Positions 4,285 through 63,158 of a stretch of 63,158 nt of DNA are shown here, piece by piece. This DNA is from Fonticula-like sp. SCN 57-25 (taxonomy: Eukaryota): assembly GCA_001724245.1 (NCBI GenBank), contig MEDX01000007.1, forward strand, positions 1 through 63,158, written 5' to 3'. A program made the translations under genes and the position numbers. The notes under the pieces were generated by a model, which had not been told where the DNA came from, did not search any database, and saw only the letters and a program-made list of their open reading frames with translations. Every line of letters begins with the position of its first letter. Within the stretch, counting starts at the first letter, position 1.

Positions 4285-4555
4285 GCGCGCTTGTACTCGA
4301 ATTGAACTGTACCATCATATCGGTCACCGTTTCAGCGGGGTGATGCAGAGTTGTCCACCTTGAAATGCGAAATCGAATAGGAAAAGGATCGGGTGGGTGC
4401 ATTTTTTGTACACGATCCACACCGTCAACAAAGACGCCCGCCCGCCATGTTTGCGGTGAAAAAGGGCATTAAGAATGTGTACGGGGCGGAATGAAGCGCG
4501 CGGCGCACTGCTGAGAGTATTGTCTGACTTGGTATGACGTAGCAAAAAGGCGGTG

Positions 4556-13635: not shown

Positions 13636-13647
13636 TTGCAGTTTGCA
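13636..13647 (+). promoter_or_regulatory. TTGCAGTTTGCA motif upstream of LRR gene start
   Basis: Exact 12-mer about 20 nt before ATG 13667. Confidence 0.55.
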
Positions 13648-13666
13648 CATCAGTTTGCATCCTGCC

Positions 13667-24752: not shown

Positions 24753-27700
24753 ATGAATGCGGACGCTGTGCGCGCGCTCCTCGATCGTGCGTCCGACGAC
24801 GAGGTACGTTACCATACACACACCGTAAGTGTATTCTTACTTATATGTAGGTTTCGGTGGCGCTTGATCGCGCGCTGGCCGACGGTCATGCACCCCAGCT
24901 CGTTGACACGATCCTCGCCCTGGACGACGCCCCTAGCCGCGGGCGCATGTTTGCGCATCTTTTAAGGGTATTACCGAATGCGCCAGAGAAGGCTGCAATG
25001 CGCGTTGTCGGCCAGCTGCTTGGTGTACTAGACACATTTGATATCGATGCGCTTGTGTCGGCGACCGAGAGCATCCTACAGAGCATCTACAAGGGGACGT
25101 GCGGGCAGGGCGCCGTCCTCGAGCTCCTCCCCCGTCTCCTCTCCATTCTATCGCAGCAGCCTCGCTTGGCTGAAGGCGGAGCTGACCTGCAGACAGGCGC
25201 AGAGTTTGTGGAGCGCGCCCTTCAGCGCCTCTGCGAGAAGCGGTGGCCGTCGGCCGTCGCGGTTCGCCTGACCACCGTCCTCCGCGACAGCGATTTGGCC
25301 GACTCGCACCGCGACCTCATCCTACACGCAGCTCTCCGCCACCTCGGTCATGTGGATATCCATGAGCTGCCGTCCCTCACCTACCAAATCCTGTTGCTGG
25401 CGCGCAAGCCAGCCTCGCGGCAGCTTGCGCTTAAAAGTATCCTGGCCCAGATGGACTCCCTCTCTCGTCAGGTGGTCGTATCGCAGCAGGCCACCGGCCC
25501 CACGGGCGGCAGCAGCAGCCGCAGCATTGCCGAAAGCGACGAGAGCATCCGCAGCGTTGGTACCTCGCGCACCGTCCTTCGGCAGGTGCAAGGTAACTGC
25601 CTGCTGCACATCAACTTTGCCATCAAGCAGGATCATGTGCGCCTTTGCGCTGATGGTGCATCTTTTACTAACATTCTTTTCTTTTCAGGAACTCGGCCAG
25701 CTGATTATCAAGGTGGTCCGGTCGCTCGCGGGCGCCGGCATGACGTCATTTAATATGGCGCTGCTGCTGTCGGTCGCCCTCGTGAGCCACTTTGAGGACG
25801 CTGCGATTGGTGCGCTCAAGAGCGGCCTCTGGGCGCGCCTCAACGACGACGTGATGCGCGCCTCGAACGCGTGGCTTGCAAAGGCCGACGCCTCGGACGA
25901 TGACGCAGCCGATGCCGACGCGACGGTTGTTCTGCGGGACATTGTGGCGAGCTCCGCGGACGGGTGGGACCACGTCCTCCCTGCCTTTGTACGGCTCGGC
26001 GCCTGCCTCGTGGACGCCTACGCGGGCAAGCTGTCGAGCAGGAGCATGTGCGACATCCTGGCCGACTCGACGGACGACGCGGCATGCACTCTTGGCACCG
26101 CAAACGACCGCGCTTTCCGACTCGGCCTCGTCATGCTCCACAGCGCCTTTGCCGTACGTCTAGTTTATCGTCGTCGCTGAATGCTAAATGATACACAGAA
26201 ACACGAGCAGTCTCGAGGCGAGATTTTGTCGATGATGAGCGCGCGCCTGCTGAACCGGTCGCCGAGCGCGGGCGCCTTTGTTGCGCTGCTGAGGCGGATT
26301 GTGGCGACGTGCCCACACGCGCTGCTCGAGCAGCTGCAGCGCGTCCGCGATATGATTGACATTCTGGCGTACCTCCCGCTGCCCGTCGCGTCGGCCTTTT
26401 TGGCCGCCATCCGGCCGGTCATCACGCTCAACGTCGCCTTTCAGGACCATTTGGTTCTCGTATTGCGCAAGGCCATCTTTGCAAAGTGCGACACTGCTGC
26501 TACCTGCCTGTTGTCTGACACGCGTCATTAGGGAGATGGAGGCGCGCAAGGTGGCGGTCGCCGGCGTGCTGATGCTTCTTGGCGCGGGCGACGCGGGCGC
26601 CGTCCCTCAGTTTTCACAGCGCGCCTTTTCGCAAGACGCGCGCTCCTCTGCGCCCCCGCCCGCTGCTCTGTCTGCGGGCGAAGTGCTCGCGATCCTGCGC
26701 CGCTGCCTTTCGCAACAACCCGACGTTCGTCTGAGCCTCTACGTGGGTCTGCACCGCGCCGTAACCGACATGCCTCACCTCGCTGTCGACGTGCTCTCGG
26801 TGCTCGAGCCGCACTTTTCAAAGTACTTTGACCCCGATGGCGCGCAGCGCAACCCGTTCCGCACGTCGCTTTGCCTTGAGCAGCAGTCGGGCGCGCAGGG
26901 CGTGCACACATTGGTTGAACCGCTTCCGCAGCTGCTCGCCGTAGTGTGCCGCTGCGTGTCGGTGTCGTCGGCGCAGGCCGGTGCGGCCTCGGACGCGCGC
27001 CTTCAGCATCTCGGCGGCGCCCTTCGCGAGGCGTGCGCGCGCCTTTCCCGCGCCGAGCTTGACGACTTTGGGCTGAGCCGCGCGAGCGACATGAACCCTG
27101 CAACGGCCGCCGGCAGCCGCAACCTCATGACGGCCGCCACAATTGTGTGCTGCATCGAGGTGCTCATGGAGTTTGTCTTTAGCGGCGGGGAGAGATCCAT
27201 GGAGAGCTGCAACCTCATCGTGGCGCTCTTTCACCGCCGTGACGCGCTCATGGCGCTCGCCCGCGACGCCCACGCTGCGCCCGCCGCCGCCCCGGCCACC
27301 GCTGCGGCGACCGCCACGGCTGCGACGGCGGCCGACGCGCACATCAACTCGGGCGTCCACTCGATCGAGTTTGCCGCCGCCTTTTGCCGCTTCATGTTTT
27401 CGGACAATGACCCGCACAACCTGTCGGCGCAGAATGTACTGCGCGCCGAAAAGCCGCTGTTGCGTATGGCGGCGGGCCTCGCGGTACAGTGCCCCGACAC
27501 AGCGCCAGCGCTCGACGCGCCGATGCCCGACCGCGTGTTTGTGAACGCGTGCCTGCTTGGCCGCACGCTCGTGCACGACGTCGCCATGGCGCAGCAGATG
27601 CGCGTGGCGTCGACCGGTCCGGCCGCCAAAGAAAAGGTGCGTGCTTTGCTATTCTATTTGCGCGAGGCTAACAATAAAACCTTTTAGCGAATTGCGTCGA

Positions 27701-29068
27701 TTGCACTTGAAGGGTTTCTTTCGCTGTTCGAGTCCGTCGTTCGGCTGGCGCCGTCGCGAGCGGCCTCTTTCCTTGTGCACACGGCCGGCTCGAGCGGCGG
27801 AGACGACAGCGCTTCGCTACGGGCCGCCTTTGTATACTTTCAAGAGGCAGTGGTGACGCTTGTGGTCGAGCGCGTGCCAATGTACCGCGAGGCGGGCCTG
27901 CTGGTCGGCGCGCTCGAGTCGCTGCTGGCTGGTGGCCTTCTTTCGCAGCCGCTGCGCACCGAGCTGCTCGCGGGCATGTCGGCGTGGCTCGCCACGCTTT
28001 GCGAGGACCAAAACATTGACGACCTCTCGTTCGCGCGCGTCGCCTTTCAGTTTCTCTTTTCCACCGCGGCGTCATCGGCCGACCTCGCCGTTCTTCGCAA
28101 CGCCGTGCGCGACGCGCGTCGGCTGCTTGGCGACATTTTTGAAAAGGACGGCGACGCGGCGGGCGACGACGACATCCGCGGCGACGGTACTGTCCAGATG
28201 GCGGCGGTGAACGCCAAGACGGTCGTGGCGGTGTCTGCGCTCGCGGTCGGCGGAATCGACGCGCTGCTGGCGGGCGCCGAGTGGGGGCTGTCATACGCGC
28301 GCGCGCTCGACGCAGCGCACACGGACGCCGAGGATGGCGCCAAGGGCCGCGCGGCACGCATCGTCGCCGCCGTATCGGAGCGGACGACGCGCGCCGTTGA
28401 GCTGCTCAGCGAGCTACTGCAGGCCATCATGACGGGCGCGGGCGCCGAGGCGCTCCTGCGGGCGCTCACTCGCGCATGCAAACTCGTACTGAATATTGCA
28501 AAGTGGTACGGAAAGAACGCGCACGCCGCGGCGCCCAGCAAAGAGTTTGTCGCGCTCATCGACCTCGTGCTCGGCCGCCTCACTGACGACGCCTACCGTG
28601 CGACATTTCTTATGGCCACACGCCCACTCACACTTTACAGAGTTTATCCCGTTCTGGCAGACGTCCGATCTCGAGAATGCGCGTCTGCAGGCCGAAGCAC
28701 GCGGCGGCGTCGGTGGCGATGGAAAGGGAAAGCGCAAAAAGGGCGCGGCGTCGAATGCGGCGCAGCGCGCGCGCATTTCACGCGAAAGCAAGCTGCTGCC
28801 CAATCTCATCTTTTCCATCGAGCACATGGAGCGGCAGCTCGTGCAGCTCGCCAAGGCGACAAAGGTGCGACTTTTTTCTTTCATGCCCACGTGTCTAATT
28901 TATCTCTAGGTGAACCTTCTCAAGAACTGGAAGCGTGGCGCCGCGCGCGACTTTCGTATCCAGGTTGGCCAGGTGGCGCAGGTGCTGCAGGCCGGCGGCG
29001 GCGACGATGGCGACGGCGACGACGCCGGAAAAGGCCCCGCCAAGCGCGCGCGCACCGACGCTGCGTAG
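24753..29068 (+). CDS. FANCI: Fanconi anemia group I protein
   Basis: ELPSLTYQILLL, VQGN.LLHI.FAIKQD.ELG, LVLVLRKAIFA...ARK.AV.G (monoubiquitination Lys region), SQ motifs, LRRCLSQQ.DVR..LY, C-terminal RESKLLPNLIFSIE..E..L..L.K.TKVNL.......RDFRI. Confidence 0.92.
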
Positions 29069-29180
29069 CACTGTGTACAAGAGAGCAAGTTGATATAGTG
29101 TAAACATGTTTGTTGCTGTTGTACAAAAGAGGCAAATGGTATCAATGTAGCAATAAAGTAATAATAGTTGCATAGTTTTG

Positions 29181-35302: not shown

Positions 35303-38300
35303 CTACTCCTGCTCCTGGCGTCTGCGCGTGGCAGACTCCTCCTCGAGCCTATCGGCTTCGTTGAACCTGTCGACGAGGCCCTGCACCATCGACTTGATTG
35401 AGAGGAGCTCGTCCATGACCTTGTCGTCGTCCTGCTGGAGGCAGAGCGCGCGGCCGACGGGGTACCACGAGGTCTCCTGGCGGTCGACGAGGTCCCTGAC
35501 GTACGCCTCGTAGGCGGTGTACTCGGTCGTCTCGGTCTGGAGCAGGTGCGCCGTGAAGAAGAGGTAGTTCCACTGGTTGTGCTCGTTCTTGCAGTGGTAG
35601 TCGAATCCGACGCCGGCACGGTCAAAGTCGTACGAGCGCAGCGAGCACACAAAGCAGGCGTTGCTCATGTCCTCCTCGGCCTGGTAGCGCGCGTCGCGCA
35701 GCTCAGAGAAGGTGTCGACAATGATACCAAAGACAATGTTGAGGCCGATGACGGCGACGATGATGTAGAACGAGAGGTCAAAGATGATGCGCAGGCCGAC
35801 CGCGCTCCACGTGGGGTCCGTTGGCTCCAGCACCAGGCCAAGGGGCTCTTGCAGACCCATCGTGAGGCACGTGAGGAAGCACTGCCACATGTTTTCACAC
35901 CACAGGTAAATGTTTTGGGACGGGTCAAACGACGCGCGCAAAAAGGCAAAGCTGACAACCGAGTAGATATAAATCACTATGATGGCGAGCATGAGCACGT
36001 TGAGCAGCGAGAGGCCGTTCTGCGTGATGGAGCGCAGCACACGCTTGAGAATATCATTGTTGGCGATAACATGGAGCAGATGGAAGCAGTAAAAGTAGCC
36101 CGACGTGGCAATGCCGGCGACCGAGCAGGCAAAGAACACCAGGTGGTACAGGTTGGAGAACCTCAACACGTCCCCGGCCGACTGGACCGGGTGGCCCATA
36201 AAGTGCGCCGATACAACGAGGAACGATATCAGTATGTGCGCGGCGCCCAGCGCGTAGATCACGGGCTGGTACCAGGACTCGACGACGGGCATGATCACGG
36301 TCGGGTCGGGGTCGGCCTGCCAGGTGGCCAGGATAAGGATGTTGATGCCGAGGGTCAGGGTAAGAATCATAAGGTGCCAGATGTAGGCGTTGAACACGAG
36401 GAAAGTAGCGACGGGGTTGGTCATCAGGCGCTGGTGGTAGCGCATGTGCTCGCGGAGGCCCTCGCACGCCTCGGTAAAGCTCTCAATCTTGCCGGTCGGC
36501 GAGCTGCGGTCAACGTTCCACTGCAGCTCCTCCATCATCGGGCGCGTCAGGGCCTCGCGGTCGCGCACGCGGAAGTACACACGCATGAGCTCGCCCTCCA
36601 TGAGGATCTCAATGGAGGCGGAGTTGTTGCGGAAGAAGGAGATGCGCTCGTAGGCCTCCTGCTGCTCGTGCGAGAGGACGCGCTGCTCCTTGTCCGACAG
36701 CTTCTCCAGCAGCCAATGCGTGCCAAAGCGGTGGCCGACAATGTCGCGCAGGCGCGAGAAGACAAAGTACATCATAAAGCCGGCCTCCTCAAACTCGGCG
36801 GGCGTCGTGGGGCTCTCCGAGTAGCTGATCATGAGGGTGTGCATGGCCTCGAGGTCGAGCGCCGTGCTCAGGTCCATGGCAAGGCGAACGGACTCGCGGT
36901 TGTTCTCCTCGACAACGGTGCGGAGGACCGTCGCGGCCTTCAAGTGCAGATCGGCAACGTCCTCGGCGCTCGCGTTGCCAAAGGTGGACTCGCGGATGAC
37001 CGCGTTGACCACATCAACGATCTTGCCGTCGTACAGCTGCAGCTTGTTCTGCATGTTGCCCGACGAGAACTCGTTGAGCGTCTCAAAGATCTGGCGGACG
37101 AGGTCAATCGACTCGTGGTCAATGTTGACGTAGATGATGTGCAGGTAGTCGAGCGTCGCCGCCACCAGGTTGTACTGGTTGATGTGGTCGGGCTGCTCGC
37201 GGAGATAGTTCTTGATCTCGTCGTTCTGGTTCTCGCACAGCAGCTGCAGGATGCGCAGCAGCAGCTCGACAAAGCCAACAACGTTCTTGAACTGGAGGGC
37301 GGCCTGCTGGTCGTCGTCGTCGTCCTCCACCGGCGGCGGCGGCGGCGGAGCGGCCGGGGCCGTAACCACCTCCTTCATGGCAAACGAGCTCTTCCTGAGC
37401 GCGCTGCCAAACGAGCTGGTGCTCTTGAGCGGCTCGAGCGGCGGCGAGTCGTTGGCAGACACCGTCATCTCCACGGAGCGCCTCATGCTCTTGCCATAGA
37501 GCTCCTCGAGCGCGGCCTTGTCGCGCGCAGCCTGGGCAATCAGGCCGCGCTGCTCCTTGATGGCGCTGGCGGACTGCTGCAGGCGATCGCGGATGATGGT
37601 GAAGAAGGTCTCGTCCTGCTTGCCGCGGAAGAACTCGACAAAGGACTTTTGGACCAGCGGGTTGCCGCCAATGAGCATCATGACAAGGAGGCGGAGCGCG
37701 GCGCGCTCCACGACAGGCGCCTTGGAGGCCATCAGCTCCACAGCGACGGCGGCCACATGGTTGTCATTGAGCTCGGCCTGGATCTGCTGCGTGGTGGCCT
37801 TGACTACTTCATTCGCTTCCTCGACAAAAGGACCGTCCTGCAGCTTGAGGTACTCGTTGGAAATGATGGCGCGCAGCAGGCGGAGGTGCTTGACGTCGAG
37901 CGCGATCTGGTTCTCCTTGTCGCGGTCCGACATAAACGGGAAGGCCTCGAGCGAGACGCGCAGCGAGCGGACGATCTGGAGCGTCCACGGCTTGATGGCC
38001 ACAAACTCGCGGTTGCGGCGGTACTGCACAAAGGCCGCAATGTGCTGCTGGAACTCTTCACCGCGCCAGAGACCGCCCAGCATCGCGTCCGGGTCGGTGT
38101 CGTAAGCCGGGCAGGTCTTGTCGCTGCGGTACGACGACTCCATGTTGGAGACAAACTTGCGCAGGCTGCGCATGATCTCGAGCTGCGTCGAGTACGCCGC
38201 CAGGAAATTCTGGACGGCAAAGTTGGCCGGCTTGCGTCCGCCGGCGGCCTTGTGAGCAACGATCTCGTCATAGCGAGCCTGCTGCTCCTCGGTGGCCCAG

Positions 38301-41300
38301 CCGGCCTGATCGAGGGCCACGAGGGCGGTGCGCAGCTTGCGGACGCGGAGCTTGGTCGCGTACAGCGGCGACTGCAGGATACGGTCGTAGAACGCCAGGA
38401 GGCTCGACATGATCTGCGAGGTGATGGCCTTGTGGTCGGGGCACAGCTTGTCGATCATGCCCGACTTGGAGTAGTGGTTAAGGTAAAACTCCTTGACAAA
38501 CTCAAAGACGCCCTCGCGCATGGTGTAGTCATCCTGCACACCCTCGGGGGTGTCGAGCAGGTGGTCGAGGTCCTTGGCGCTCACCTCCTGCACCTTGGAG
38601 TTCATCATGCTGAGGAACGTCCACATCTGGGGGTTGAGGTCAATGTCGGACGCCTTTCCGGGGCCCATCGACGTCGAGAGGTAGGCCCAAAGAAGGAAGC
38701 GCAGGTACGGGCGCTTGTTGTTCATAGCAATAGAGGGGTGCGTGAGCACCTCGAAAATCTCGGCCGGGTCAAAGATGTTTTGGCAGACGGACTCGACAAA
38801 GGGGTTCTCGCCCTCGCAGCACGAGGCCAGGAAGCGGATGAGGCGGACGTGGTAGTTCAAGGCGTGCTTGTCCTCGGGGCTAAGGGTGCCCTGGCTTTCC
38901 TCGACGAGCAAGCGCATGCGCTCCTCATTCTCGGAATCGGACATGAGCGTCAGCGTCGTGGTGCGCTGCTGCATCATGTACTTGACGGCGAGGCTCTGGT
39001 TGCGGCGGATCGGGACGTCGCCCACGCGCACGACGGCGTTGAGCAGCACGAGCAGCTCGGGGGCCTTGGTCTTGGCGAGCAGCTGAATAATGGAGTGGAT
39101 CTGCCTTTCCTGCAGCTTGATGCACATCTCGTTCGACGTGAAGATCTCGGCAAGGGCAAGCGCCATGTTGGGCACCGACACCTCGCGCTCAATGAAAAAG
39201 TCGAGGTGCGCGAAAATGTCGAGCTGGATCATGCGCTGGATTCCGTCCGTGTCCAGCTTGGGATCACGGCGAGCAAAGGCGGCGAGGAACATGAACGCGG
39301 CATCGTACACCTTGGCCATGCCGCTGTAGGCCTCCAGCTTGATGTCGTAGGGCTTCTCGAGGAGAGCGTAGACGTCAGCGAGAATGCCCGAGCTAAAGAG
39401 AATCTGCTGGTTGATGACGTGCGGCTTGGTGCGGTCCTCCTGCAGGATGCAGTACTCGCGGAACGCGTTGAAGCTGTTCACCATGGTAGCCTCGCCAGAC
39501 GTCGTGAGCTTGGTGCGCAAAAGGCGGCGGATGGCCGGCACCTTCGAGGCGACATCCTTGTAGACCGAAACAGCGTCGGGCTGGACGATAAGCTGGCACA
39601 CCTGGCCAGACTCGAACAAATGCTGAATCTTGGAAAAGTGGCGGTTCACGAGCGACATGCCAAGCGTGGCCATCTTGGTGTAGTCGTACAGCGTGAGGTC
39701 GAGGAGCACCTCCACGACCCGGTCGTCGTTGCTGATAAAGTCCGTGCGGCTGTCGAGGCTCGCAAGGTACGCCTTGACCGGCGGGGCTTCCATAGCGCCC
39801 GTAACGCACGACGTGATCGACGCCAGCTCGGACCCAAGGTTGAGCAAAAGGCTAGCCGACGCCTTGGAGACTGACATCTTGACAGACTGGCCAATCGTGT
39901 TGTAGATCGACTTGAAGTTGAAGAGGAACTCGGCTGTGCGCAAGACGGCGCGCTGGTTGAAGAGAATGTCGAGCAGGAGCAGACCCGCATACTTGGCATT
40001 CACAACCGCCTTATTCTTGCGAGTCTTGGTAATGCGGAGCGTCGCGCGCCACTGCTTGAGCTCATCGTGGTTGAGGTGCGAGTTGTGCGACGGCACGTCC
40101 GTGTGGCCATCGAGCAGCTTGATAAGCAACGGCACCAGCTGGGTGGCATCTTCGCTCGAATAGTAGCCAAAGTTGACCAGCTGGGAAAGCAGGTGGAACA
40201 GCTGCTCCGTGAACGCGTTCTGCGCCTCCTCCTCATGCGACATGACATGGTTATGGGAGAGGTACTTGACGGCAAAGTCGCGCAGATCAGGGTAGCAGGC
40301 GAGCTTGGCACCCGACACGCTCATAGTCTCATCGGCGACCTTCTTCTGCGCGACGAGCTGGTCCCACAGGAAGGTTGTCGAAGGATTGCTAAAGATGCGG
40401 CGGTTACCCTTCACGTTCACAAACACGTTCTGAACAAAGTCGACAAAGGCCGAGCGGAGCATGTACGGGACGGTCTCGTCGCGGATGGCGCGGATAACGA
40501 GGTCATACGGAATGGCCTTGGAGAGCAGGCCAATGTTGCGATCGTTGCGACCCATGCAGACGCGGCTCATGACGCGCACCTGAGAGGCAAGGTACTGCAT
40601 GTGGGTCTTGTTCTCGGAGAACTTGTCAAGCGAAAGCCAGGCGTCCTTGGGCTTGAAGCGCGCGCTGATGCTGTTGCCCTGCATCTGGAACTGGGCGAGA
40701 ATGCCGAGGTCAGCCGACTCGGCAGAGAGGTAGTCCCAGACCAGCTGCTGGTTCTGGGGGATGGCGCTCTCTTCGCAGACGCAGAGGAGGCTCAAAAAGT
40801 CGAGGAAGCTGCGGTCGTGTGTCTTCTTGAGCCAAAACACAAAGGAGGAGATCTGCTGCGCGCTAATGCGGTCGAGAATCTGCTGATTGTCCGCGACAAG
40901 CTGCATAAACATGGCAGGGGTGTGCATGTCATAGCCGATCTGCGACTGGAAGAAGCTAATGTACTTGGCAATGTACAGCTCGTTCTTGCGGGAGTCGCCG
41001 TCGAGGTACACCGCGAGCAGATCGTAGGCCGTCTGGCAAATCTTCTTGAGCTTGGGGAAGTTGGGCAGCTCTTCAAGATCAATGCCTGTCTTGTTGAAGC
41101 CCTCCACAAACGCAAAGCCCTCCGGGGGCTTGAACAGCACCTTGAGCATGCCGACGAGAATGTCGACCACGCGCAGCTGGCGAAGCAGCTTTTGGCGCTT
41201 ACGCTCGGGTGTGCCGCTGTCGCCCTCCACAAACTTGATGAGGTGCTGCAGCACGCGGTAGAGCACCTGGAAGACCATGGGGTCGAGGCGCTGAATCTTT

Positions 41301-42821
41301 GCGTCCTTGTGGCGCTTGATGAACTGCATGAGCTCCTCGAGGGTGCCCATGACAAAGTTGACGTTGTACTCGTAGGTCGGCTCGACGCAAACAATCACAA
41401 AGGCATCGTCGTTCTTGACGTCGTTCTGGGTGGCGACCTTGCGGAGAACGCCATTGTCCCAGCGCAGGCTCTCCATGCCCTCGTTGGAGAGCGCCTTGTA
41501 CTGGTTCAGCTCGTAGGCGTTGAAATCGCCGTGGAGGAACATGCCGCTCGAGCGGTGCTGGATCTTGCCGTACGACATGTTGTCGAGCTCGGGCTTGTCC
41601 TTGATGATGGGGATGAGGCGGAAGACGGACGCCGTGCGGTCCGAGCCGTCCACGAGTCCGACCGAGCGGTCCTTGGAGACACCAAGGTACTTGCGCGTCT
41701 GGACATGGCGGAAGCGCACAAGCTGCACCCACTTCATGGGCTCACCGCAGCCGGCATCGTCGGCCATCTCGATCTGCCAGAACGTGTTGGACGACGGCGA
41801 CTTCAAGGACGGGCTCGCCGTCGGCTTGCGGACGCGCAAATGAACGTCCTCGCCAATGCCAAAGTCCAGGAAGTTTCCCTCGGCCGTCATGTACGCGTCC
41901 ATTTCCTTGTGGACGATATGCACGAGGTTGTTGCCATAAATGGCGTCTTGCTTCTCTTGGGCGAACTTGCGGTGGCAGTGCAGCAAAAAGGCCGACTTGC
42001 GGACCGACGCGTCAATTTCGCGCTGGCCCTCGTACAAGTGCATATGCGGAAGCACATCGTCCGAAATGTGCAAGAACTGGCCGGCCGTCTTGGCGCTCTC
42101 GAGCACGACCTGGTCGTTGACGCGGACAAAGTCGCCCTCGGACTGGATCTTGAAGCGCGGCATGATGCGGAAGTAGCATTCTACGGCAAACCGTCAGCAT
42201 GAATAGACAGGAGCGGGCATCGCGCACGTTTGCTGTTGTCGCCGGAAAGCTCGACGCGCATGTTCATGACGTCGGTGGTGGCGGCCTCGCGGTTGCTGAA
42301 GCGCAGGAAAGAGTGCGACATCACGTGGCGCAGCTGGATGACCTGGCCGTACTTGAGGCCGCGGCCCTGCTGGCGAGCCTGCTCCTTGCGGTTGTCGTTC
42401 TTCTCGGCTTCGACAAGGCGCTCCATCTTGCGGACTTCGTCGTCCTCGCTCAGGTTCTTGCTCTCGAGGGCATTGCGGTACTTTTGCAGGCGCTTGGCGA
42501 CCTTGTACTTCAATGGCGGGAGGATCTAGGGCACGATGTGTGAGCTGAGCCACGGCGCGGCGCAGGATTCAGGCTCGCGCACCTCAAACGACGCTCCCTT
42601 AAAGTTGGGAACCTGCGGGTTCTTCGGGTCCTCGGTCTGGCACAGGTAGAGCGAGGGGCGCACCGAGGCGTCCGTGTAGGCGAAGCCATTGGGCTACAGC
42701 GGGTGTCAGAAAAAGGGCGGCCGGATACAGGGGCGCTTCAACGTCGCACCTCTTCATGATAAAAGCATATTTCGTCTCCAAAGAGGACGGTGTCCAACCT
42801 CGTGTCAGGTTGGTCCCCCAT
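35303..42821 (-). CDS. ITPR: Inositol 1,4,5-trisphosphate receptor-like Ca2+ release channel (~2500 aa)
   Basis: Suppressor domain (YGQVIQLRH..S), MIR beta-trefoil, RQKLLR, RKNELYIAK, RIH-associated LRILQLLCENQN...NYLREQ, TM region with LNIVFGIIVDTFSELR, and C-terminal CFVC...H...EHN.WNY zinc site. Three short 5' exons, then one ~6.9 kb exon. Confidence 0.95.
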
Positions 42822-45592: not shown

Positions 45593-47271
45593 ATGGCGGA
45601 CGACAAGGCATCTTCGTCAAGCGAGTCGGGCGCGCCCGCGTCGGTACGCCTTTCTCCGTGCACGCCTACATGCGCGCCGCGTTGCTCACATGATACGCCC
45701 TTACAGTCGCAGGACGCCAAGAAGGCGAACCCGCTTGCGGCGCTGCAGGCCGCTCAGGCCAACGAGCTCATTGCCCAGTTGCAAAAGATGTCGGCTGGGT
45801 CCGTTGAGCAGGGGGACCGCAAAGAGTTCCACAAGTTCTGGAACACGCAGCCGGTCCCCGACTTTGGTGCGCTTCATTGTATGCGTCGGCGCGTGCGTAC
45901 TGACCGTTTGCAGGCGATGACGAGGATGAGCCTGACGTGATGGGCGCCCTCGAGCCCGACAAGCCGCAGAGCGAGGTCCGCCAGACGCCGTACGCGCTCC
46001 CCGGCGGGTTCGAGTGGTGCAACGTCGACATTGGCACGGACGAGGAGCTCAAGGAGCTCTACGACCTGCTGACGTACAACTATGTCGAGGATGACGATGC
46101 CATGTTCCGCTTTGACTACTCGGCCGACTTTCTCCGCTGGTGCGCCGATCCGACATTGTTGCTATTTTCTAAGCATTTATAATAGGGCTCTGCACTCGCC
46201 CGGGTGGCTCCCGCAGTGGCTCTGCGGTGTCCGCGCGACCCAGTCGCGTAAGCTCGTCGCCTTCATCAGCGCGATCCCCGCCGACGTCCGCATCTACAAC
46301 GAGTGCGCGCGGTCTCCTCACAAACCGTCACACTCACCGCTTCTTAGGGCCAAGCACCTGGTGGAAATCAACTTTTTGTGCGTACACAAGAAGCTCCGCT
46401 CGAAGCGCTTTGCGCCCGTGCTGATCAAGGAGATCACGCGCCGCGTTCACCAGACCAACTGCTTCCAGGCCGTTTACACGGCGGGCATCCGCATCCCGCG
46501 CCCGGTCTCCATCTGCAAGTGCGCACATCCCCTTTTTCGTATTCGAACTTGCACCAACACACGTCTTTTTGCGTACTTTTCAGCTACTACCACCGCTCGC
46601 TGAACCCGAAGAAGCTCATTGAGACTGGCTTTTCGCACCTCGGCCGCAACAAGAGCATGGCGCTGACCGTCAAGCTGTACAAGGTTCCCGACGCGCCCAA
46701 GATCCCCGGCTTCCGGCCGCTCGAGGAGCGCGACATTCCGCAGGTGTGCCGCAAGCTCAAGGCGTACACGGACCAGTTCAGCCTCACGGCCGTCCTGTCT
46801 GAAGAGGAGTGCCGCCACTGGCTTCTGCCTCGTGCTGGCGTCATGTACTCTTACGTCGTGCAGGTGCGGCTTTTTATTGTTTTTTGTGACCTTCGTCGCG
46901 TTTTGCTAATCATTCTTGTCGAATTTCTTATTATTTTTTAGGCGCCCGGCTCTGACGAGATCACCGACTTTGTGTCGTTTTACAACCTGTCGTCGTCGGT
47001 CATCAACCACCCGGTGCACAATATGATCCGCGCGGCTTACCTCTTCTACTACTTTGCGAATGCCAACCCGCTCACGGAGCTGATGCGCGACGCGCTCATC
47101 GTCGCCAAGCAGCACGACTTTGACGTGTTCAACTGCCTCAACATCATGAACAATGACGAGTTTGTCGACAAGCTCATGTTTGGCATCGGTGACGGAAAGC
47201 TCCACTACTACCTCTACAACTGGCAGTGCCGCTCGATGCAGCACAACAAAATGGGCCTCGTGCTCCTCTAG
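45593..47271 (+). CDS. NMT1: Glycylpeptide N-myristoyltransferase
   Basis: [87 protein letters not shown], ending GLVLL*. Confidence 0.97.
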
Positions 47272-47440: not shown

Positions 47441-48685
47441 TTAGTATTCAACCTTGAAGTTAAAGTAGTCCTCGTCGAATGTGTGCATGCGAACGTAACC
47501 GTCCTCACCACCGCTCGAGAACCCGCGGCCGCTAGGGTGGAAGTGCACGGTATTGATGGGACCAAAGTGGCCCTTGATGCGGCCAATCTCCTCAGACATG
47601 ACCTTGTGGAACACGCGGACCTCAAACTTGCCGGCGCGGAGCGATGATGTCGTCACCTGCATGGCTTCCTGACCACCACCGACCAGCACGTGGTCGCGGT
47701 CGGGGGCGATCGACGCCGAGTTGACCGGCCGGTCCGTCTGGTACGTCTTGAGGTGGCGAAGAGAGTCAGTGTCAAACAATTTCGACGACGTGTCCTTGCT
47801 CGAAGTAATAAAGTACGTCTGGTCGGGGGCAAACTGAATGTCCATAATCGTGGCAGTGTGCTCCTTCACGCTCGTCAGCTTGGCATTGTCCAGGCTGTAG
47901 TGAGCAATCTCGCCGTCCTCGTGGCCGGCAAGAATGGTCTGGTTCAGCGGGCTCCACCGCGCAGTCGTGATCTTGCTGCTCCTGGGGGCAAGATCAACAG
48001 CGCGAACCGGCGCTAAACAACATCGCAATCAGCATCGGCGGAAAAGGGTTAAGAACACCAAACGAGACAACAATTACCACAAAGACCACACAAAAACTAA
48101 AGAGCGGGTCGTACCTCCGTTGGCATTGGTGCGCACATCGTAGACGAGCACCTGACTGGTCTGTCCCATGATGGCGTCCGTCACGACGAGAAAAGTGGCA
48201 TCACCGAGCGCATAGTCAACCGAACGAACGGGCGACTTGTGCGCCATGCTCTGAACCTCCTTGCCGGTCTCCGTATCCCAAACCTTGGCCGAAAAGTCGG
48301 CCGAGCCCGTAAGAAGGCGCGTGCTGTCGTCTGAGCAAAGAAAGGCCGTGTCAGATGAGTTGATTTAAAGATTCGCGGCTGGACGTACACGTGCTGGCGA
48401 CACACCATACGGAACCCATATGGCCGCGGTACGTGCCGAGGCGCTCGCCGGTCGACGTGAGCCAGACATTCGGAACGTTGTCCTTTGACACGGTGAACAA
48501 GAGATCACCCTCGCGATTGTACCTGACCATCGTCAGCGAGCGCGTATGGCCCTGCAGAAGAATCGGACGCTGCAAATCAAAACGAAAAGATGGAAAAGAG
48601 AAATTGCAATAGCAAAGTAAAAGAAGCCAGTGCGTCAGAAACTAGCCTTCAAAGCGCGAGCGAGGGCGAAAAGCGGGCGCACCAT
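47441..48685 (-). CDS. EIF3I: Translation initiation factor eIF3 subunit i
   Basis: ATG-only first exon, then [23 protein letters not shown]...[49 protein letters not shown]. Confidence 0.96.
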
Positions 48686-48913: not shown

Positions 48914-51900
48914 TTAATGCGCCGCGGGGACCTCCTCCTGTTGGTTATGCATCTGCATCTGCTCGTTATTGGTCTGCTGGTCGCGCGTAAAGTCGTCCGA
49001 CCCATAGTACGAGTAGCCTGCACCGCTGTTGTCGGCGGGCGCGGCGGGCGCAAACACGGTCGGCGCCGGCATCGTGCTCGAGTCAACAAACATGGTCGAC
49101 GACGGCGGCATAAACGACATGGCGGGCGGGAGCGCCGCCGCGGGCCGTGCCTGCTGCTGCTGCTGCGCGGCGGGGTTCATGATGTCGACGTACTTTGACC
49201 GCGCGGGGCGCCTGCCGGCCGCTGGCATCGCTGCCGGCGGCGGCATGGCGCCACCGGGAATACCAGGCGCGCTCACGGGTCCGCCCATGGCACCCATAGC
49301 ACTACCCATGCCAGGCGGGAGCATGCTGCCGTTGGCGGGCGCCGCAGGAGCAGCCGCGGGAGCAGGCGGCGGCATCACGGGCATCTTTGGCGGCGGCGGC
49401 GGGGGCGCGTCCTCCTCGGTCACCAGAGGCGATCCCTGTACATAAGAGTCAGCAACAGACGAACAGAAAAAACATGGCGTACGTCTGAAGTGACCCAGCG
49501 GCCGAGGTTCTTGTCAAAGGTGAGCTGCAGCTGCGAGCCGAGGTTGACTTCGGTCTTTCGCCTAAAGAGCCCGGAGATGCGCGACAGAAAGCCCGCATTG
49601 TCGGCGGACGGCGAAGCGGGCCCGGACGACTCCTTTTTGGACGGCGACGCGGTCGGCGTGGACGGCGCCTTTTTCTTGTGCGCGTCATTGCCAAACCCAA
49701 GATCATCGGCGTCATCGGGCTCCTCGCGCGTCGTCTTGACGGGAGCGGGGGCGGGGGCGGGACGCGGCGGCTTGCCGGCATCCGCGCTGGTGGGCTGCGC
49801 GGGCGCCGGTTGGTAAGCAGCCGGCTGATACGACGCGGCCGGTGGCTGGTAAGCAGACTGCTGAGCTGGCTGATACGCCGACTGCTGGGCGGCCTGCGCA
49901 GGCTGATAAGCGGGCTGCGCTGGCTGGTAAGTCGGCTGAGCAGGCTGATAGGGTGCTGGTGCGCCGCCCTGTGTTGATGACATGCGCCTGTGGCCAATAC
50001 CCGCCTGCGACACTGTACGCGAAAGCGACGGCTCCGACGGCGTCCTGGCCGGGAAAAAGTCTGTCGGCGTCTGAGTGCGCGAGTTCCTCCCGCTCGGCGG
50101 CAGGAACGGCTGCTGCACCTCGCTCTCGGCCGCCTTGTCGGTGTCGTCACCAATAAGCTTCTCGATGCCGCGGTCAAAGAGGTTCCTGAGTCCGTCGCGC
50201 GACGTCACGCTCTGGAAGAGCCCGCCGAGGCGGTTGCTCGCGTTGGCAAAGGCCTCGAGGCCAGGCGTGCTCGCGCGCGTCGACGTGCGCGCCTGCTCCA
50301 TCTGGAGACGAGCAGAGAACTCGGCGACCCAGTGAAGGAACTGCCGCGAAAAGTACTCGCCGCCCTTGGCATGCTGCTGCTGCAGGCTCGACGTCACAAG
50401 GTCGACGTAGCGCTGCGCCTGTTGCAGGTGTCCAAGCTCAGAGAGCAGCGCGGCGTACCGCACGCGGAACACGTGAAGCCAGGGGAGAGAGTACTGCGTG
50501 TTGCGGCCAATGCGGGCGGCCTCAAGGAGCTCAGTGCGCTGGAAGGCGTGGGCGTCAATGCCGGGGGCGAGACCGGCACGAGAAAGCGGAGCGCCGACAA
50601 GGCGAGGCAGATCAGGCTTGGGCATGTCGGCCACAAGCAAGCTGCAACAGGATATTAGTAAAGAAAAATAAACAAAAACAGCGGAGAACGGCTCAGATCC
50701 TTAAAAAACCACCGCCCCCCCTTAAAAATCTGCATTACGTACCAAACGTGAGCGGCGTCGTATTGGCCGTTGGCGTTGAGCAAGTCGGCCAACCGCATGA
50801 GCATTCCAATGTCCGAATGGTCGCGCGCCTGAATGAGCAGCCCGAGCGTCTCCTTCCAGCGCGACGTCGCCTCTGACTTTGCCTGCTCACTCGAAAGCTG
50901 CTGCGCGTACGCGGCCGGCCCGCCGGTCGTCTGGTGAAGCGAGAGCGCCGCGAGCATGGTGCGCAGCGGGTCGCCCTCGGGGAGAGACGCCGCGGCAAAG
51001 CGCCCAACAACGGCGCGCTGGGCGGCCGCCGGGAGCAGCGTCGCCAGCGCAAGGGCGTGAGACCAGTTGCCCGCCGCGGCGGCTGCGTCGACAGCGTCCT
51101 GACGCTTGCCTGACAGGAGAAGCTGGCGGACCTGCGCGAGCGCCTTGGCCGGGTCGGCCGCCGGTGCTGCCGGCCGCTGAGCGTCATTCACAAACGAGCC
51201 AAAATTCTGCTGGCCGGCAATCAGTAGCAGCGTAAGCGCGGCCTCGGCCTTTTCACTACAGAAAATGGTCAGTTGAAGTTGGAAAATAGCTATAATTGCG
51301 CACTTTTGGTTGAAAAAGCCGCCGTTCTCGTAGAGCGACCTGATGAGTCGCCACATCACCTCGCTGTCCGACTCGCCGTACGCCGACTGCGACTGCGCCA
51401 CCATCTCGTTGAGGTACGTGACCACCGCCGACGTCGTGCCCTTCTTGAGCGGGCCGGGCCACTTTGAAATGGCCCCGGCCGTCGACGTCTGGGCCAGCAG
51501 GTCGGCCACGCGATGTACCTTGAATGGCTGCGCGCTGCCGTGGTGCTGGTTGACCAAAATAAGACGGCCGCCAAAGGCAAACACGGGGATCGAATGCGGC
51601 CGGCGAGACTTATTAAAGTCGTCCATCGCGGCGTGCTGCTGCTGCTGCTGCGCGTACGGCTGGTACGCGTCGTAGGCACCAGCGCCGTACTGCGACTGAT
51701 CGTACTGCTGCTGGCCATACTGCGACTGGTCATACTGCGACTGATCATACTGCTGCGGGGCATACTGCTGGTCCTGCGGCACGAACTGCTGCTGGTCGTA
51801 CTGCTGCTGGTCGTACTGCTGCTGGTCGTATTGCTGATCGGGAACATACTGCTGCTCGGGAGAGTACTGCGTCTCAGTGGGCGCGTACTGCGTATCTGTG

Positions 51901-54900
51901 GGGGCATATTGGTATGACTGGTCGAGAGTCTCCTGAGCGACCGACGAGTCAACGGCTGCCGTGACCGACTCTTGCTGCGTCTCGGCCGCCTCCTGTGACT
52001 CGGTGGCGTAGCCGTCGGGGACGTACGTGTTCAGCTCGGCGTTCCACGAGTACTGCATGCCCTCGTGCACAAAGGTATACACGGGCTGCGTCGACACATT
52101 CAAATTGGACTCGTCAAGGGCGCTGACGCCGCCGCCGAGCTGCGTTGACTGGTCGGCAACGGCGGAAACGTCGGCCTGCGTGGAGATCTCCGTCTGCGCC
52201 TGCGCCTGCGTCTCATCCGGCTGATCGACATACCGGATAGCGATGTAGGCGCCCTGTGCGGCGTCCCACGCGTACTCGACACCATTTGAAATAACATTGC
52301 CAATCGCCTGCTGAGCAACGCTCTCGTCAGCGACGACACTTGCATCCGCGGCGGGTTCCTCGGCGGTATATGTTTCCTGTACCGACGAATAGTCCGCGTC
52401 CTGTTGCTGCTGCTGTTCCTGCTGCTGCTCCTGCGGCTGTTCCTGTTGCTGTTCCTGGGGCTGCTCGGTGGTGTAATACCCTTCCGAGTAGGACTGGTTC
52501 TGGTCATATTGCTGGTCATACTGCTGGTAGTACTGCTGCTGCTGCTGGTCATCGGTGGCTGTCTGCTGCTGCTCGCCGTACCACGAGGAATTGTCATACT
52601 GCGCCGACGCGCCGTACTCGTTAGACTTCTCAGTCTCTCCGTAGCTCTGCTGACCGCCGACCTGATCGTCGTAGGCGGCAGTCAGAGCCGCATCCGCCTC
52701 GGCCGCCTGCTCGACGCCGATCGTCGCGAACGGGTCGTCTTCCGCCGCGACCGACTTCTCCGCCCAGTCATAAACAGAGCCGGTCGACGCGGCGGGGTTG
52801 AACTGCGCCGAAGCAGTACCGTCAAACGCCGGTGTTGACGACCGTGGAGGCGCAAACAGCGCTGTCTCGCTCTCCTCGACCGCTGCCGCGGGTGCTTGAA
52901 CCGGCTCGGCAGCCGGCTCAGCGACCTCCTGATCGCCGCCAATCTGCGAGAACGGGTCCTCGTCGTCGTGCCCGGCGGTAAAGATGGGCGCATCGGCAAA
53001 GGCACCCCCGTGCGGCGCCTCGGTCTGCAAAGTCTCCTGCCGAACGTCCAGTACGGCAGGCTCGCTCGGAATCACCGCCGGGGCGCTCTCCTCAAAGGCG
53101 GTCTCCTCAAAAGCGGCCTCCTCAAAATCGGTTTCCTGTACAACATCAACCACGGCCGGTGGGCTGGCAAACGACTCGTCCATGTCCTCGACCTCGAGGG
53201 CCGGCGCGGTGTCATGGTGCACGCCGCTAAAGTAGTCGGTGGCGGCGGCGGCGGGCGGGGCCGCATGATCCTCATTAAGGACGTCCTCCATGAGCTGGGA
53301 GGGGTCAAGCGGGGCGACCGGCGGCAGCGAAAGCGGGTCCTCAATCGAGCTCGCGGCCGAGAAAGTGGGCTGCTCGTCAGACATCTGACTATAAACAGTG
53401 CTCCACTGGTCATTCGAGGCGCTCCCACTGCTCCAGAGCGACTCTGGAACCGACGCGCTCGGCTGCGGCTCGGGCTGCGCAACGACAGGCGCGCGAATCT
53501 CTTGCGGCGGCGCACGCGGGGGCTCGCTAACCGCTTGTGTCTGCTGCGGCGGAGCGGCAATGTTGGTGTCCGCGGGGGGCGACGAGATGGAAAGCGCCGA
53601 CACCTTTTCCGTCAATGTGGAAGGAAGCCCGAGGCCCTCCTGCCTCATCTGCTCATCAATCGTGTCCAAAAAGTTCATGTCCGTGTCCCATCCGTCGGCC
53701 GACTCGGTCAGTGCGTCATCGGAAAGCGACTCTGGTACAGCAGCGGGCTCTGGTACAATAGCGGCGGACTGCGGCACAACTGCAGCGGACTGCAGCACAA
53801 CTGCAGCGGACTGCGGCACGAAAGTAGCGGGCTGAGACACAACAACAGCGGGCTTCGGCACAACAACGGCGGGCTTCGGCACAGCAGCAACGGGCGCCTC
53901 GTACTTCACCGGAACCTCCTTGGTTTCTGCCGCCACAGGTGCAGGGGCGACCGGGGAGGGCACATCGGAAGGTGCGAAGGCGTGTGATACGTCATACGCG
54001 TACGCGGATGGCGAGACGTACGTATCGTTGGGTGACAACAAAGCAGAGCTGGGCGCCTTGAGAGGCACAACTTCCAGGATGTCGTCGAGCGGCGTGTCCC
54101 ACCCGTCAACCTCATCGGCATACTCAAGGTCGACCGGGCGGGGCGTCCCAGCAGGCGAAGGATCGGCAATCGCGAGCGGCGTGACTTCGGGAACAGCGTG
54201 CGACTCAGTCACGGGAGCCGCAGGTGCATCCCAGGGTGCAGGTGCATCTGCCGGTGCGTCCCATGGGGCAGGCGCATCAGCAGGTACCTGGGCCGTTTCT
54301 GACGGTGCATCCCATGGTGCTGGTGTATCGGTCGGCGGCGCATCCCACGGAGCCGGTGCTTCTGTCGTCTTGGCATGCGCATCCCACGGAGCCGGTGCTT
54401 CAGTCGTATGGGCAGGAGCAGCAGTGTTGGTAGGGGCCGCAGGGGCATCCCACGGTGCAGGTGCTTCAGCAGTCTGAGCGGGAGCAGCAGGCGCTTCCCA
54501 TGGAGCATGTGTCGTCTGGGTAGAAGCTGGAACGTCCCAGGGCGCCGGTGCATCATCTGCTGGCGTAGACGGAACGGACACGTCCCACGGCGCAGGTGCG
54601 TCGGCCGCCGCGTGGGAAGCAGCGCCATTGCTCGAGGGCGTCGTGGAAGGCACTGCCTCCTGCTGCATCGCGGCGGTCTTTGCCGGCGGCGGAGTCGGCT
54701 CCGCCGCGTTCGAGCCAGCGAACGTCGGTGTGCTGCCTTGGTTCCCATAGGCAAAGCTGCTCACCTGGTTGGCGTACGTCCTGGGCGCATTCGGCGGCGC
54801 CGCCGAGTCGCTCGGGCGACGCTGGATGTTGGGCTGGGGCGGCAGGCTAAGATACGGAGTCTGCAGCTGCTGATGCATATACACTTCCGCCTGTGCCGAG

Positions 54901-60603: not shown

Positions 60604-63158
<2,555 letters not shown>

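Follow-up and report, generated by a model that had tools for sequence, protein, structure and literature searches.

The window analysed here, a stretch of 63,158 nucleotides from a metagenomic assembly, carries on its reverse strand (35303..42821) an IP3R-B-type channel gene in which a short loop stands in place of the glycine-rich selectivity filter of the pore. The gene is a new member of the known and understudied IP3R-B subfamily, and subfamily membership combined with a real loss of the filter is a reading that we hold with high confidence. As most of its relatives also have no glycine-rich filter, the protein is unremarkable within a family that is itself unusual. The explanation as a whole, which joins the IP3R-B gene and the real, recurrent filter loss to a predicted cation pore, appears fairly probable to us.

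The gene was modelled from the listing of open reading frames, their translation and splicing as four exons encoding 2452 amino acids, with the stop codon at 35303-35305; the upstream exons were located by tblastn with the N-termini of related proteins and by reading of the frames. Exon 1 (42750..42821; reverse strand, like all features below) holds the start codon, the first ATG downstream of a stop codon in the same frame, and the beginning of the N-terminal suppressor-like domain. It is followed by a 56-nt intron (42694-42749, GTGCG...TAG), exon 2 (42583..42693), a 57-nt intron (42526-42582, GTGCG...TAG), exon 3 (42228..42525), which is matched in tblastn by residues 15-95 of the Capsaspora protein P0002 at 39.5% identity, and a 47-nt intron (42181-42227). 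Exon 4 (35303..42180) encodes the MIR domain and everything C-terminal to it, which makes up most of the protein. The spliced model comprises 7359 nt and a single terminal stop, with three clean GT..AG introns and a 2296-codon exon free of interruptions, in agreement with the initial annotation, which had described the rest of the approximately 2500-residue protein as intact. The Pfam families Ins145_P3_rec, MIR, RYDR_ITPR, RIH_assoc and Ion_trans were all detected above the curated cut-offs; the start of Ins145_P3_rec is missing from the Pfam match and is encoded by the upstream exons. The protein is a complete member of the IP3R/RyR superfamily. An exon of the neighbouring gene, eIF3I, finds its best named matches in animals, fungi and an ichthyosporean (52-61% identity) and another match at 70%, and these levels indicate that the organism is an opisthokont without a close sequenced relative.

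Translation of 35303-42400 contains the pore region WCENMWQCFLTCLTMGLQEPLGLVLEPTDPTWSAVGLRIIFDLSFYIIVAVIGLNIVFGIIVDTFSELR, exactly as it had been quoted in the initial annotation, and the pore helix, loop, S6 and zinc finger lie inside or adjoin the interval highlighted there (35790-35900). The pore helix CENMWQCFLTCLTM (35858..35899) is conserved in the alignments and is helical (residues 136-149) in the AF2 model of a 330-residue segment, as is the pore-lining S6 with LNIVFGIIVDTFSELR (35660..35809; residues 163-212). The C-terminal zinc finger, C-x2-C ... H-x4-H (35579..35656), was placed by alignment to IP3R2, and its residues C214, C217, H234 and H239 hardly vary across alignment A1; the claim that the flanking S6 and the zinc site are conserved is borne out by the alignment to IP3R2. 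Where solved IP3Rs read GLRNGGGVGDVL, the window protein has GLQEPLGLVLEPTDP (35813..35857), a loop that is two residues shorter, has no GGG and carries Leu for Asp/Glu. The HMMER alignment to the solved IP3R2 sets GLQEP--LGLVL opposite GLRNGGGVGDVL, with two glycines deleted, the third changed to proline and Asp/Glu changed to leucine, and MAFFT alignments of 63 and of 79 relatives give the same register. Since the alignments agree on these changes, the earlier description of a shortened or replaced filter and of a change from GD to GL proved correct. The selectivity-filter motif has been given as GGGXGDX (PMC2995152), and the GGGxG[D/E] signature of the IP3R/RyR superfamily was not found in the window protein. 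As judged from the alignments, the canonical glycine-rich filter is genuinely absent, and a shorter loop with Leu at the acidic position stands there. A hidden intron or an alternative frame restoring GGG was ruled out: neither of the other two frames of 35650-36050 encodes GGG, and the intron signals of the gene (GTGCG, CTGAC) are absent from the same interval.

Placement in the B subfamily is based on similarity searches, trees and shared signatures. The best non-self match (of 140 matches) is Capsaspora CAOG_04510, most likely, we presume, the CO.IP3R-B of Alzayady et al. 2015, with 45% identity over the C-terminal 447 residues (E 2.6e-131). The same protein was again at the top of 5411 matches in 1.84 billion cluster representatives, among which no relative above 45% identity was found outside the protein's own cluster; a metagenome scan for close relatives produced 118 pattern matches, none of them confirmed by tblastn. 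All sequence matches in the PDB are IP3Rs or RyRs, the best being IP3R2 (E 1.1e-50). Three trees were built without RyRs, two of them by quick searches. In the 79-row tree the window protein falls into a 41-row clade (SH-aLRT 99), and a separate six-row A-type clade (99) comprises Fonticula, Corallochytrium Clim_evm11s55 and a nematode. In the more careful, outgroup-rooted 30-row tree it lies outside the outgroup and inside a 24-row B clade (support 100/99) with CAOG_04510, choanoflagellate and sponge proteins and invertebrate "IP3RB", a membership also seen in the 63-row tree. The window and Capsaspora proteins are sisters with moderate support in the 63-row tree (SH-aLRT 90), without resolution of this pair in the 79-row and 30-row trees. 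The naming of the A and B groups follows clade composition and secondary citations: CAOG_04510 (XP_004347257.1) differs from the accession named as Capsaspora IP3RA, XP_004347577.1 (PMC9522344), and the Lottia and Saccoglossus proteins fall within the B clade, their IP3RB genes being among those that define the subfamily (PMC7992859).

The B-type proteins share signatures that represent our own reading of the alignments rather than published criteria, namely FGIIVDTFSELR in S6 and H[LMI]R[VIL]R (here HLRVR) and SRKN in the IP3-binding-core region. CAOG_04510 resembles the window protein in its domain set, in the S6 sequence FGIIVDTFSELR, in the pore helix WQCFLT and in the HLRVR and SRKN signatures, and it is also devoid of GGG; however, its loop reads GLENGLASVGIAD, which is unrelated in sequence and different in length. 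The two proteins differ further at the R504-equivalent, which is Arg in the window protein and Lys in CAOG_04510, and in the VTTKR stretch, which the window protein does not have. The invertebrate IP3RB proteins (leech ip3rb2, Lottia, Saccoglossus) share with it the clade, the missing GGG and the S6 signature, but the animal proteins possess conserved replacement loops of their own, such as GLIGD[LM]FE and GLIDGLQE, none of which is matched by the window loop. Invertebrate IP3RB is reported as missing from vertebrates, Drosophila and C. elegans and as physiologically uncharacterised (PMC7992859).

Filter loss is common in this subfamily. The initial annotation had implied a singular change in a canonical IP3 receptor, and neither part of this view is supported: the protein sits in the separate IP3R-B-type clade, and GGG is missing in 122 of 183 B-type sequences, the closest relative CAOG_04510 among them, so the motif does not define the B subfamily. 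The possibility it had also raised, that many protist IP3Rs share this loop, stands as far as the widespread lack of GGG is concerned and fails for the loop sequences, which differ. On the 63-row tree at least five changes of GGG are needed, four of them forced by the starred branches, and on the 30-row tree five changes were counted in 200 of 200 bootstrap trees. A single clade of the 36 GGG-less rows was rejected (delta lnL 434.5, p-AU 9.3e-57), and in the 30-row tree GGG is present in the outgroup and in a basal B member, Corallochytrium. As reconstructed from these sequences, GGG is ancestral in the B clade and has been lost several times independently. Counted from the pore-helix Gly, an Asp or Glu at +2 to +4 occurs in 97 of the 122 GGG-less B-type sequences vs 3 of the 61 GGG-bearing ones, and in the window protein this stretch reads GLQE. 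Corrected for kinship, the relocation of the acidic residue appears in four independent pairs, of which a mean of 3.5 go the same way and none the opposite way (sign-test p 0.125, not significant); the raw counts would fit a compensating change, which we take as a lead only. No statement on the IP3R-B filter was found in the literature searched, which excluded the primary 2015 paper.

Outside the filter loop, the protein has the architecture of the superfamily. The AF2 model of the last 330 residues has a pLDDT of 87.0, and its top Foldseek matches are the transmembrane domains of IP3R3, IP3R1 and RyR1-3, with E down to 8.1e-14; modelled as a monomer, which leaves pore geometry beyond its reach, the segment consists of the pore helix, a four-residue turn (LGLV) and S6. 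AF2, Foldseek and the alignment together reveal the superfamily fold with its pore helix, S6 and C-terminal zinc finger. The transmembrane domain aligns to RyRs (E about 1e-40, query residues 186-460; Foldseek TM 0.52-0.56) nearly as well as to IP3Rs, and RyRs are cited as derived from the IP3R-B lineage (PMC9113742). The window protein is nevertheless half the size of an RyR and has no GGGIGD; as RyRs have about 5000 residues with SPRY and RyR-repeat domains, neither of which was found by Pfam in these 2452 residues, it is evidently not an RyR. Both glutamates of the Ca2+ sensor are conserved in the alignment to rat IP3R1 (chain 7lhe_A), the first, hand-indexed, in LLCENQN (37232..37234) and the second in TLNEFSS (37070..37072).

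The locus is best read as an intact IP3R-B gene that belongs to an uncultured protist from a deep, holozoan-like branch of the opisthokonts, captured by metagenome sequencing. As both Ca2+-sensor glutamates and the zinc finger are conserved, together with the pore helix and S6, gate Phe included, the protein most likely still assembles into a tetramer with working gating machinery. Instead of a funnel of glycine carbonyls, its cation pore would probably use acidic side chains, some in GLQE, where the pore helix ends, and others in LEPTD, in the luminal turn, with the consequence that Ca2+ preference or conductance may be weaker than in A-type IP3Rs. Gating by IP3 is doubtful. That the protein conducts ions at all has, on these data, roughly even chances. 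Over a non-conducting sensor or scaffold we favour a cation pore that is gated and has lost part of its Ca2+ selectivity, a reading that we regard as evenly balanced between right and wrong.

A non-conducting member of the superfamily is the less probable but most serious alternative. Such a protein would be an ER-resident sensor, tether, scaffold or modulatory partner of other channels, with the tetramer and the Ca2+-sensing cytosolic domains kept and the loop drifting. The loop is indeed hypervariable in the closest relatives and differs between lineages: mean pairwise identity in the closest trio is 0.71 for the pore helix, 0.16 for the filter loop and 0.75 for S6 (flanks 0.71-0.76), and so nearly unconstrained a loop between conserved flanks is as expected of one with no ion-coordinating role. 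The GD position has no acidic residue any more, and the substitution D2550A by itself renders rat IP3R1 non-conductive, while IP3R1 and IP3R2 with dead pores remain able to restore contacts between ER and mitochondria, so that an otherwise intact IP3R can serve roles independent of Ca2+ flux (PMC6700175). The engineered D2550A channel thus resembles the window protein in its missing acidic filter residue, although it is an A-type receptor with one substitution made in the laboratory, whereas the window filter is wholly and naturally replaced and is flanked by other acidic residues. In the 2015 work of Alzayady the one tested relative (CO.IP3R-B) reportedly gave no Ca2+ release. Through that relative, IP3R-B is cited elsewhere as not binding IP3 (PMC9113742). 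Against a non-conducting role, the pore helix and S6 with its gate Phe are as conserved as in GGG-bearing relatives, with identities of 0.71-0.76 in the trio and of 0.97 for S6 in hemichordates, and this is hard to explain without a role in permeation or gating. The hemichordate replacement loop is itself conserved (0.75), and acidic residues recur beside the pore helix in the GGG-less forms. A bolder version of the favoured cation pore seems doubtful to us, namely that IP3R-B represents a distinct, overlooked class of ER channels. In such a class the filter would have been repeatedly and convergently replaced by a short loop, an acidic residue shifted to the pore helix, at its C-terminal end (GLxD/E or GLIGD, in the window protein GLQE), and selectivity altered, for example towards monovalent cations in a counter-ion or leak role, with gating by the Ca2+ sensor and not by IP3.

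It is very unlikely that the protein is a canonical A-type IP3-gated receptor with a filter changed uniquely in this lineage. The IP3 contacts of the binding core are R265, T266, T267, G268, R269, R504, K508, R511, Y567, R568 and K569, and their equivalents were located by HMMER alignment to IP3R2 and MAFFT alignment of 20 sequences. In the beta-domain segment HLRVRKPTASPS (41807..41842) the Arg aligned to R265 is kept and the TTGR-type motif is replaced; in the alpha-domain segment PERKRQKLLRQL (41174..41209) the positions aligned to IP3R1 R504, K508 and R511 are all basic; and in DSRKN (40982..40996), which includes the B-type signature SRKN, the equivalents of R568 and K569 are kept and that of Tyr567 is Ser. 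The conservation of 6 of these 11 positions would suit an A-type receptor. Architecture, fold, the pair of Ca2+-sensor glutamates and the zinc finger are shared with mammalian IP3R1-3. The protein nevertheless lies outside the strongly supported A-type clade, its S6 and IP3-binding-core signatures are B-type, with FGIIVDTFSELR in S6 as opposed to FGVIIDTFADLR in IP3R-A, and its matches to canonical IP3Rs (E 1e-50) are far weaker than those to B-type proteins (E 1e-100 to 1e-131). Unlike IP3R-A, it also has no GGGxGD, and its luminal loop from S5 to the pore helix is shorter by about 50 residues (IP3R2 2422-2474 has no aligned counterpart); the loss of the filter, moreover, is widely shared.

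Decay of a canonical IP3 receptor gene into a pseudogene could account for the disappearance of a motif regarded as essential to Ca2+ flux, but it is highly improbable given the uninterrupted long exon, the clean introns, the single stop and an identical sequence in samples of several studies. The 23 runs listed as containing the sequence include no RNA data set, which is neutral as to expression. The intact Ca2+-sensor glutamates, zinc-finger Cys and His residues, S6 and pore helix confirm the earlier opinion that the gene does not look like decay. The local assembly error for which a check had been advised was sought in contigs, not raw reads, of four runs, one of which (X1) is possibly where the window itself came from, and no substitution or indel relative to the window was listed in any of them; the contigs covering the loop from a different study of 2022 (X2, 35504-35859) and from 2025 (X3, 35735-35885) show no other letters and no gaps. 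An artefact such as a small in-frame deletion, conceivable in a metagenomic assembly compared at the level of contigs, is therefore the least credible reading of all, as contigs of two other studies agree, the changes of Gly to Pro and of Asp/Glu to Leu are substitutions beyond a 6-nt deletion, and the closest relatives have no GGG either.

The broader pattern in IP3R-B is more useful than this single gene. Most IP3R-B proteins, from molluscs, annelids, hemichordates, demosponges, Trichoplax and Capsaspora, do not have the motif that is taken as the filter of every IP3R/RyR, and in the GGG-less members S6 and the pore helix are retained along with the Ca2+ sensor and the zinc finger. The loss of the filter would be a simple structural explanation for the reported failure of the one tested member to act as an IP3-gated Ca2+ release channel, and the database names "ITPR1-like" and "ITPR3-like calcium channel" given to B-type proteins may over-state what is known of them. 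If IP3R-B did form a distinct class of channels, the window protein would provide a representative from a single-celled organism, and its expression could serve to define the class.

The minus-strand translation of the window contains the string ...WCENMWQCFLTCLTMGLQEPLGLVLEPTDPTWSAVGLRIIFDLSFYIIVAVIGLNIVFGIIVDTFSELR... exactly as quoted in the initial annotation, which had described an IP3 receptor without the GGGxGD filter. In a phmmer search of all solved structures, only IP3Rs and RyRs were matched (51 distinct sequences; top match IP3R2, E 1.1e-50), the window's 'glqep..lglvl' being paired with 'GLRNGGGVGDVL' of IP3R2, and the same pore-loop register was recovered in MAFFT alignments of 63 and 79 family members. 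By alignment, two glycines of the filter are deleted in the window's protein, the third is replaced by proline, 'LG' is retained and the Asp/Glu is changed to Leu. No GGG is encoded in the other two frames of 35650-36050, and the intron signals of the gene are absent from this interval. Part of the window stretch is present in 20 of the 23 metagenomic runs listed, and at least half of its words in 2, and no RNA run is listed as containing it; contigs, not raw reads, of four runs were compared with the window, and no substitutions or indels relative to it are listed for them. Contigs of one run (X1), possibly the source of the window, cover it completely; contigs from two other studies span 35504-35859 (X2) and 35735-35885 (X3) with 0 differing letters and 0 gaps, and both include the loop codons, 35813-35857. 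The missing filter is thus confirmed at the contig level by the agreement of three studies, and an assembly artefact, which would need one error recurring in all three, is very unlikely.

The loop lies within one very long open frame (35303-42193, minus strand, 2296 codons in the ORF listing), and the Ins145_P3_rec, MIR, RYDR_ITPR, RIH_assoc and Ion_trans domains of the protein all score above the curated Pfam cut-offs. Since the Ins145_P3_rec match begins only at profile position 143, the N-terminus was expected upstream of the long frame, and tblastn searches using the N-terminal sequences of three related proteins, together with reading of the three frames, revealed three short upstream exons. 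The resulting spliced model, with minus-strand exons at 42821-42750, 42693-42583, 42525-42228 and 42180-35303, encodes 2452 aa with one stop, at the terminus. Its introns (42694-42749, 42526-42582 and 42181-42227; 56, 57 and 47 nt) all start with GTGCG and end with YAG preceded by a CTGAC-like branch site, a tiny and uniform style that could make genes easier to call on the organism's other contigs. Antisense to the gene lie very long open frames, 35402-39871 (+, 1490 codons) and 39875-42199 (+, 775 codons), which are most likely not genes but a consequence of the G+C-rich codons used on the sense strand.

The statement that the rest of the protein is intact also holds: the zinc finger, S6, the glutamate pair of the Ca2+ sensor and the modelled fold are all kept. 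The zinc-finger Cys/His residues and S6 align residue for residue, and the equivalents of rat IP3R1 E1978 and E2042, which we take to be the Ca2+-activation sensor glutamates, are found in LLCENQN and TLNEFSS (alignment to chain 7lhe_A, indexed by hand). The last 330 aa were modelled with AlphaFold2 from a 40-sequence alignment (mean pLDDT 87.0); the model has a pore helix at residues 136-149 of the segment, a short LGLV turn at 152-155 and, at 163-212, a long S6, and its top Foldseek matches are the transmembrane domains of IP3R3, IP3R1 and RyR. A pseudogene is very unlikely.

The surrounding frames are ordinary eukaryotic ones: a G-protein alpha subunit (221-1552, minus), an epsin-type ENTH-domain protein (4538-5113, plus), N-myristoyltransferase (46073-46938, plus), Sec16 (49423-55436, minus) and SRP68 (57376-58287, plus), all identified by Pfam, as well as DAGAT, FANCI and eIF3I. 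The S1, HD1, HD2, S3 and S4 domains of FANCI are distributed across several plus-strand frames at 24851-29100, and the presence of this gene is in keeping with the gene content of a holozoan-like or, more broadly, an opisthokont organism. The best named relatives of the eIF3I exon (47444-48028, minus) come from animals, fungi and an ichthyosporean at 52-61% identity, with one Logan fragment at 70%; judged from such comparisons, the organism is without a close sequenced relative. The G+C content is 56-65% throughout, except for one 2-kb bin (12001-14000) at 48%, into which an LRR-repeat frame (13795-14547) reaches. At 61081-62364 (plus, 428 codons), a frame weakly matches the bacterial solute-binding family SBP_bac_8 (E 5e-07) on this otherwise eukaryotic contig.

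With the C-terminal 447 aa as the query, 140 proteins were retrieved at E <= 1e-10; among the best 120 of these, the top non-self match is Capsaspora owczarzaki CAOG_04510 (45% identity, E 2.6e-131), and no canonical animal IP3Rs occur. The S6 anchor was found in 118 of these 120 proteins, which are dominated by S6 of the form FGIIVDTFSELR, as against FGVIIDTFADLR in solved IP3Rs, and many lack GGG. Among 1.84 billion cluster representatives, there were 5411 matches at E <= 0.001, none of those listed nearer than Capsaspora, so the gene itself appears to have no close sequenced relative; no relatives of it were found in the metagenome scan. Public databases label many of the GGG-less invertebrate proteins among the C-terminal matches 'inositol 1,4,5-trisphosphate-gated calcium channel ITPR1/2/3-like', although these are members of the B-type clade without the filter motif.

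Three trees were built with the pore-loop columns taken out and without RyRs. In the 63-row tree (hand-picked from the 120, mollusc isoforms thinned; 776 columns, quick IQ-TREE search, mixture model), the window's protein groups with Capsaspora and a Logan protein (SH-aLRT 90), adjoining a metazoan clade (99). The 79-row tree (81 picked from 258, 2 dropped for want of the anchor; 419 columns, LG+G4, quick search) unites all FGIIVDTFSELR-type proteins, including the window's, which falls in a polytomy, in a 41-row clade (99), and places canonical S6 in a separate 6-row clade (99), in which Fonticula alba, Corallochytrium Clim_evm11s55 and a nematode are the rows with names. In the 30-row tree (careful search, ultrafast bootstraps; the root set by six rows that are A-type or more distant), support for the B-type clade is 100/99, with Corallochytrium Clim_evm22s25 basal, followed by a choanoflagellate clade (98/97) and by a group of the window's protein, the Capsaspora pair and animals (94/94), within which the window's place is a polytomy. 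The B-type clade includes proteins of Lottia and Saccoglossus, two taxa with IP3RB genes that serve to define the 'IP3RB' subfamily in a leech transcriptome paper (PMC7992859). CAOG_04510 (XP_004347257.1) is not XP_004347577.1, the accession under which the laboratory behind the characterisation of these proteins lists Capsaspora 'IP3RA' (PMC9522344), and it contains no RyR-specific domains; by elimination, it is the putative CO.IP3R-B. We conclude from these comparisons that the window's gene is very probably a new, divergent IP3R-B-type member of an already known subfamily; an aberrant A-type receptor is very unlikely.

The IP3-binding positions were compared by HMMER alignment to IP3R2 and a 20-sequence MAFFT alignment, with the numbering that we take to denote the IP3 contacts (R265, R504, K508, R511, Tyr567, R568, K569 and the T-T-G-R stretch). 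The window's protein has a basic residue at each of the positions matching R265, R504, K508, R511, R568 and K569; in it, the T-T-G-R stretch is replaced by HLRVRKPTASP and Tyr567 by Ser. HLRVR and SRKN occur throughout the B-type clade, whereas the two A-type rows carry LR[ST]TGR and YRKN. According to a secondary source, IP3R-B 'could not bind IP3' (PMC9113742).

The pore-helix anchor is present in 248 of the 267 family proteins fetched, and a B-type S6 in 183 of those 248; GGG is absent from 122 of the 183. The 138 newly listed cluster representatives comprise 86 with GGG, 40 without (some keep two Gly) and 12 without the S6 anchor. Lineages without GGG include protists (the window, Capsaspora with its Logan relative, and two choanoflagellates, Salpingoeca punica and Hartaetosiga balthica) and animals (demosponges, Trichoplax, an acoel, hemichordates, molluscs, annelids, nemerteans, brachiopods and flatworms); GGGLGE is retained in most choanoflagellate-type sequences, Corallochytrium and homoscleromorph sponges. 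The presence of GGG changes at least 5 times on the 63-row tree, 4 of the changes being forced by well-supported branches, and 5 times in 200/200 bootstrap trees of the rooted 30-row set; a tree constrained to keep the 36 GGG-less rows together as a clade is worse by 434.5 log-likelihood units (p-AU 9.3e-57). Since GGG is present both in the outgroup and in the basal B-type member, repeated loss is the best reading of these changes. In the S. punica (P0014) and H. balthica (P0112) proteins, GGG was lost independently of close relatives, which bear it, and the S. punica loop, GFTDGLGTALPHNDP, is, like that of the window, 2 residues shorter with 'LG' kept. In the reviews of protist channels that were sampled, GGGXGD is described as conserved or as varying slightly, for example to GGGLG(G/S) (PMC3194816, PMC7399828). 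The literature searched by motif and topic, which excludes the paper likeliest to say so, contained no mention of the filter being absent from IP3R-B proteins, and we do not claim that the pattern is unpublished.

The trio of the window's protein and its two closest relatives has a mean pairwise identity of 0.76 in S5, 0.71 in the pore helix and 0.75 in S6, but only 0.16 in the loop. The hemichordate replacement loop is conserved (0.75), and loop identity is 0.33 in the GLIGD-type bilaterian group versus 0.59 in GGG-bearing choanoflagellate-type sequences. An Asp/Glu at +2 to +4 past the pore-helix-terminal Gly occurs in 97/122 GGG-less versus 3/61 GGG-bearing B-type proteins, counts inflated by relatedness; the window has GLQE here. 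A tree-based test gave 4 independent contrasts, on average 3.5 in the same direction and 0 opposite (sign-test p 0.125). An acidic residue near the pore-helix end may accompany GGG loss, which is a lead rather than a result.

GGGXGDX is regarded as the selectivity filter itself or as lying next to it, its acidic residue concentrating cations (PMC2995152). IP3R1 D2550A is non-conductive, and pore-dead receptors still organise ER-mitochondrial contacts (PMC6700175). The main rival reading is that the window's protein is a non-conducting sensor or scaffold, which is favoured by the D2550A precedent and by the free drift of the loop among its closest relatives; we regard it as possible but rather unlikely. 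That lineages without GGG have kept S6, the pore helix and also the Ca2+ sensor for hundreds of millions of years argues for a gated pore still being used. We therefore favour, at roughly even odds, the proposal that the window's protein is a tetrameric, Ca2+-regulated cation channel, in which the narrowest part of the pore would be the short loop QEPLGL, close to side chains of Glu and Asp, and Ca2+ preference or conductance would lie below that of A-type receptors.
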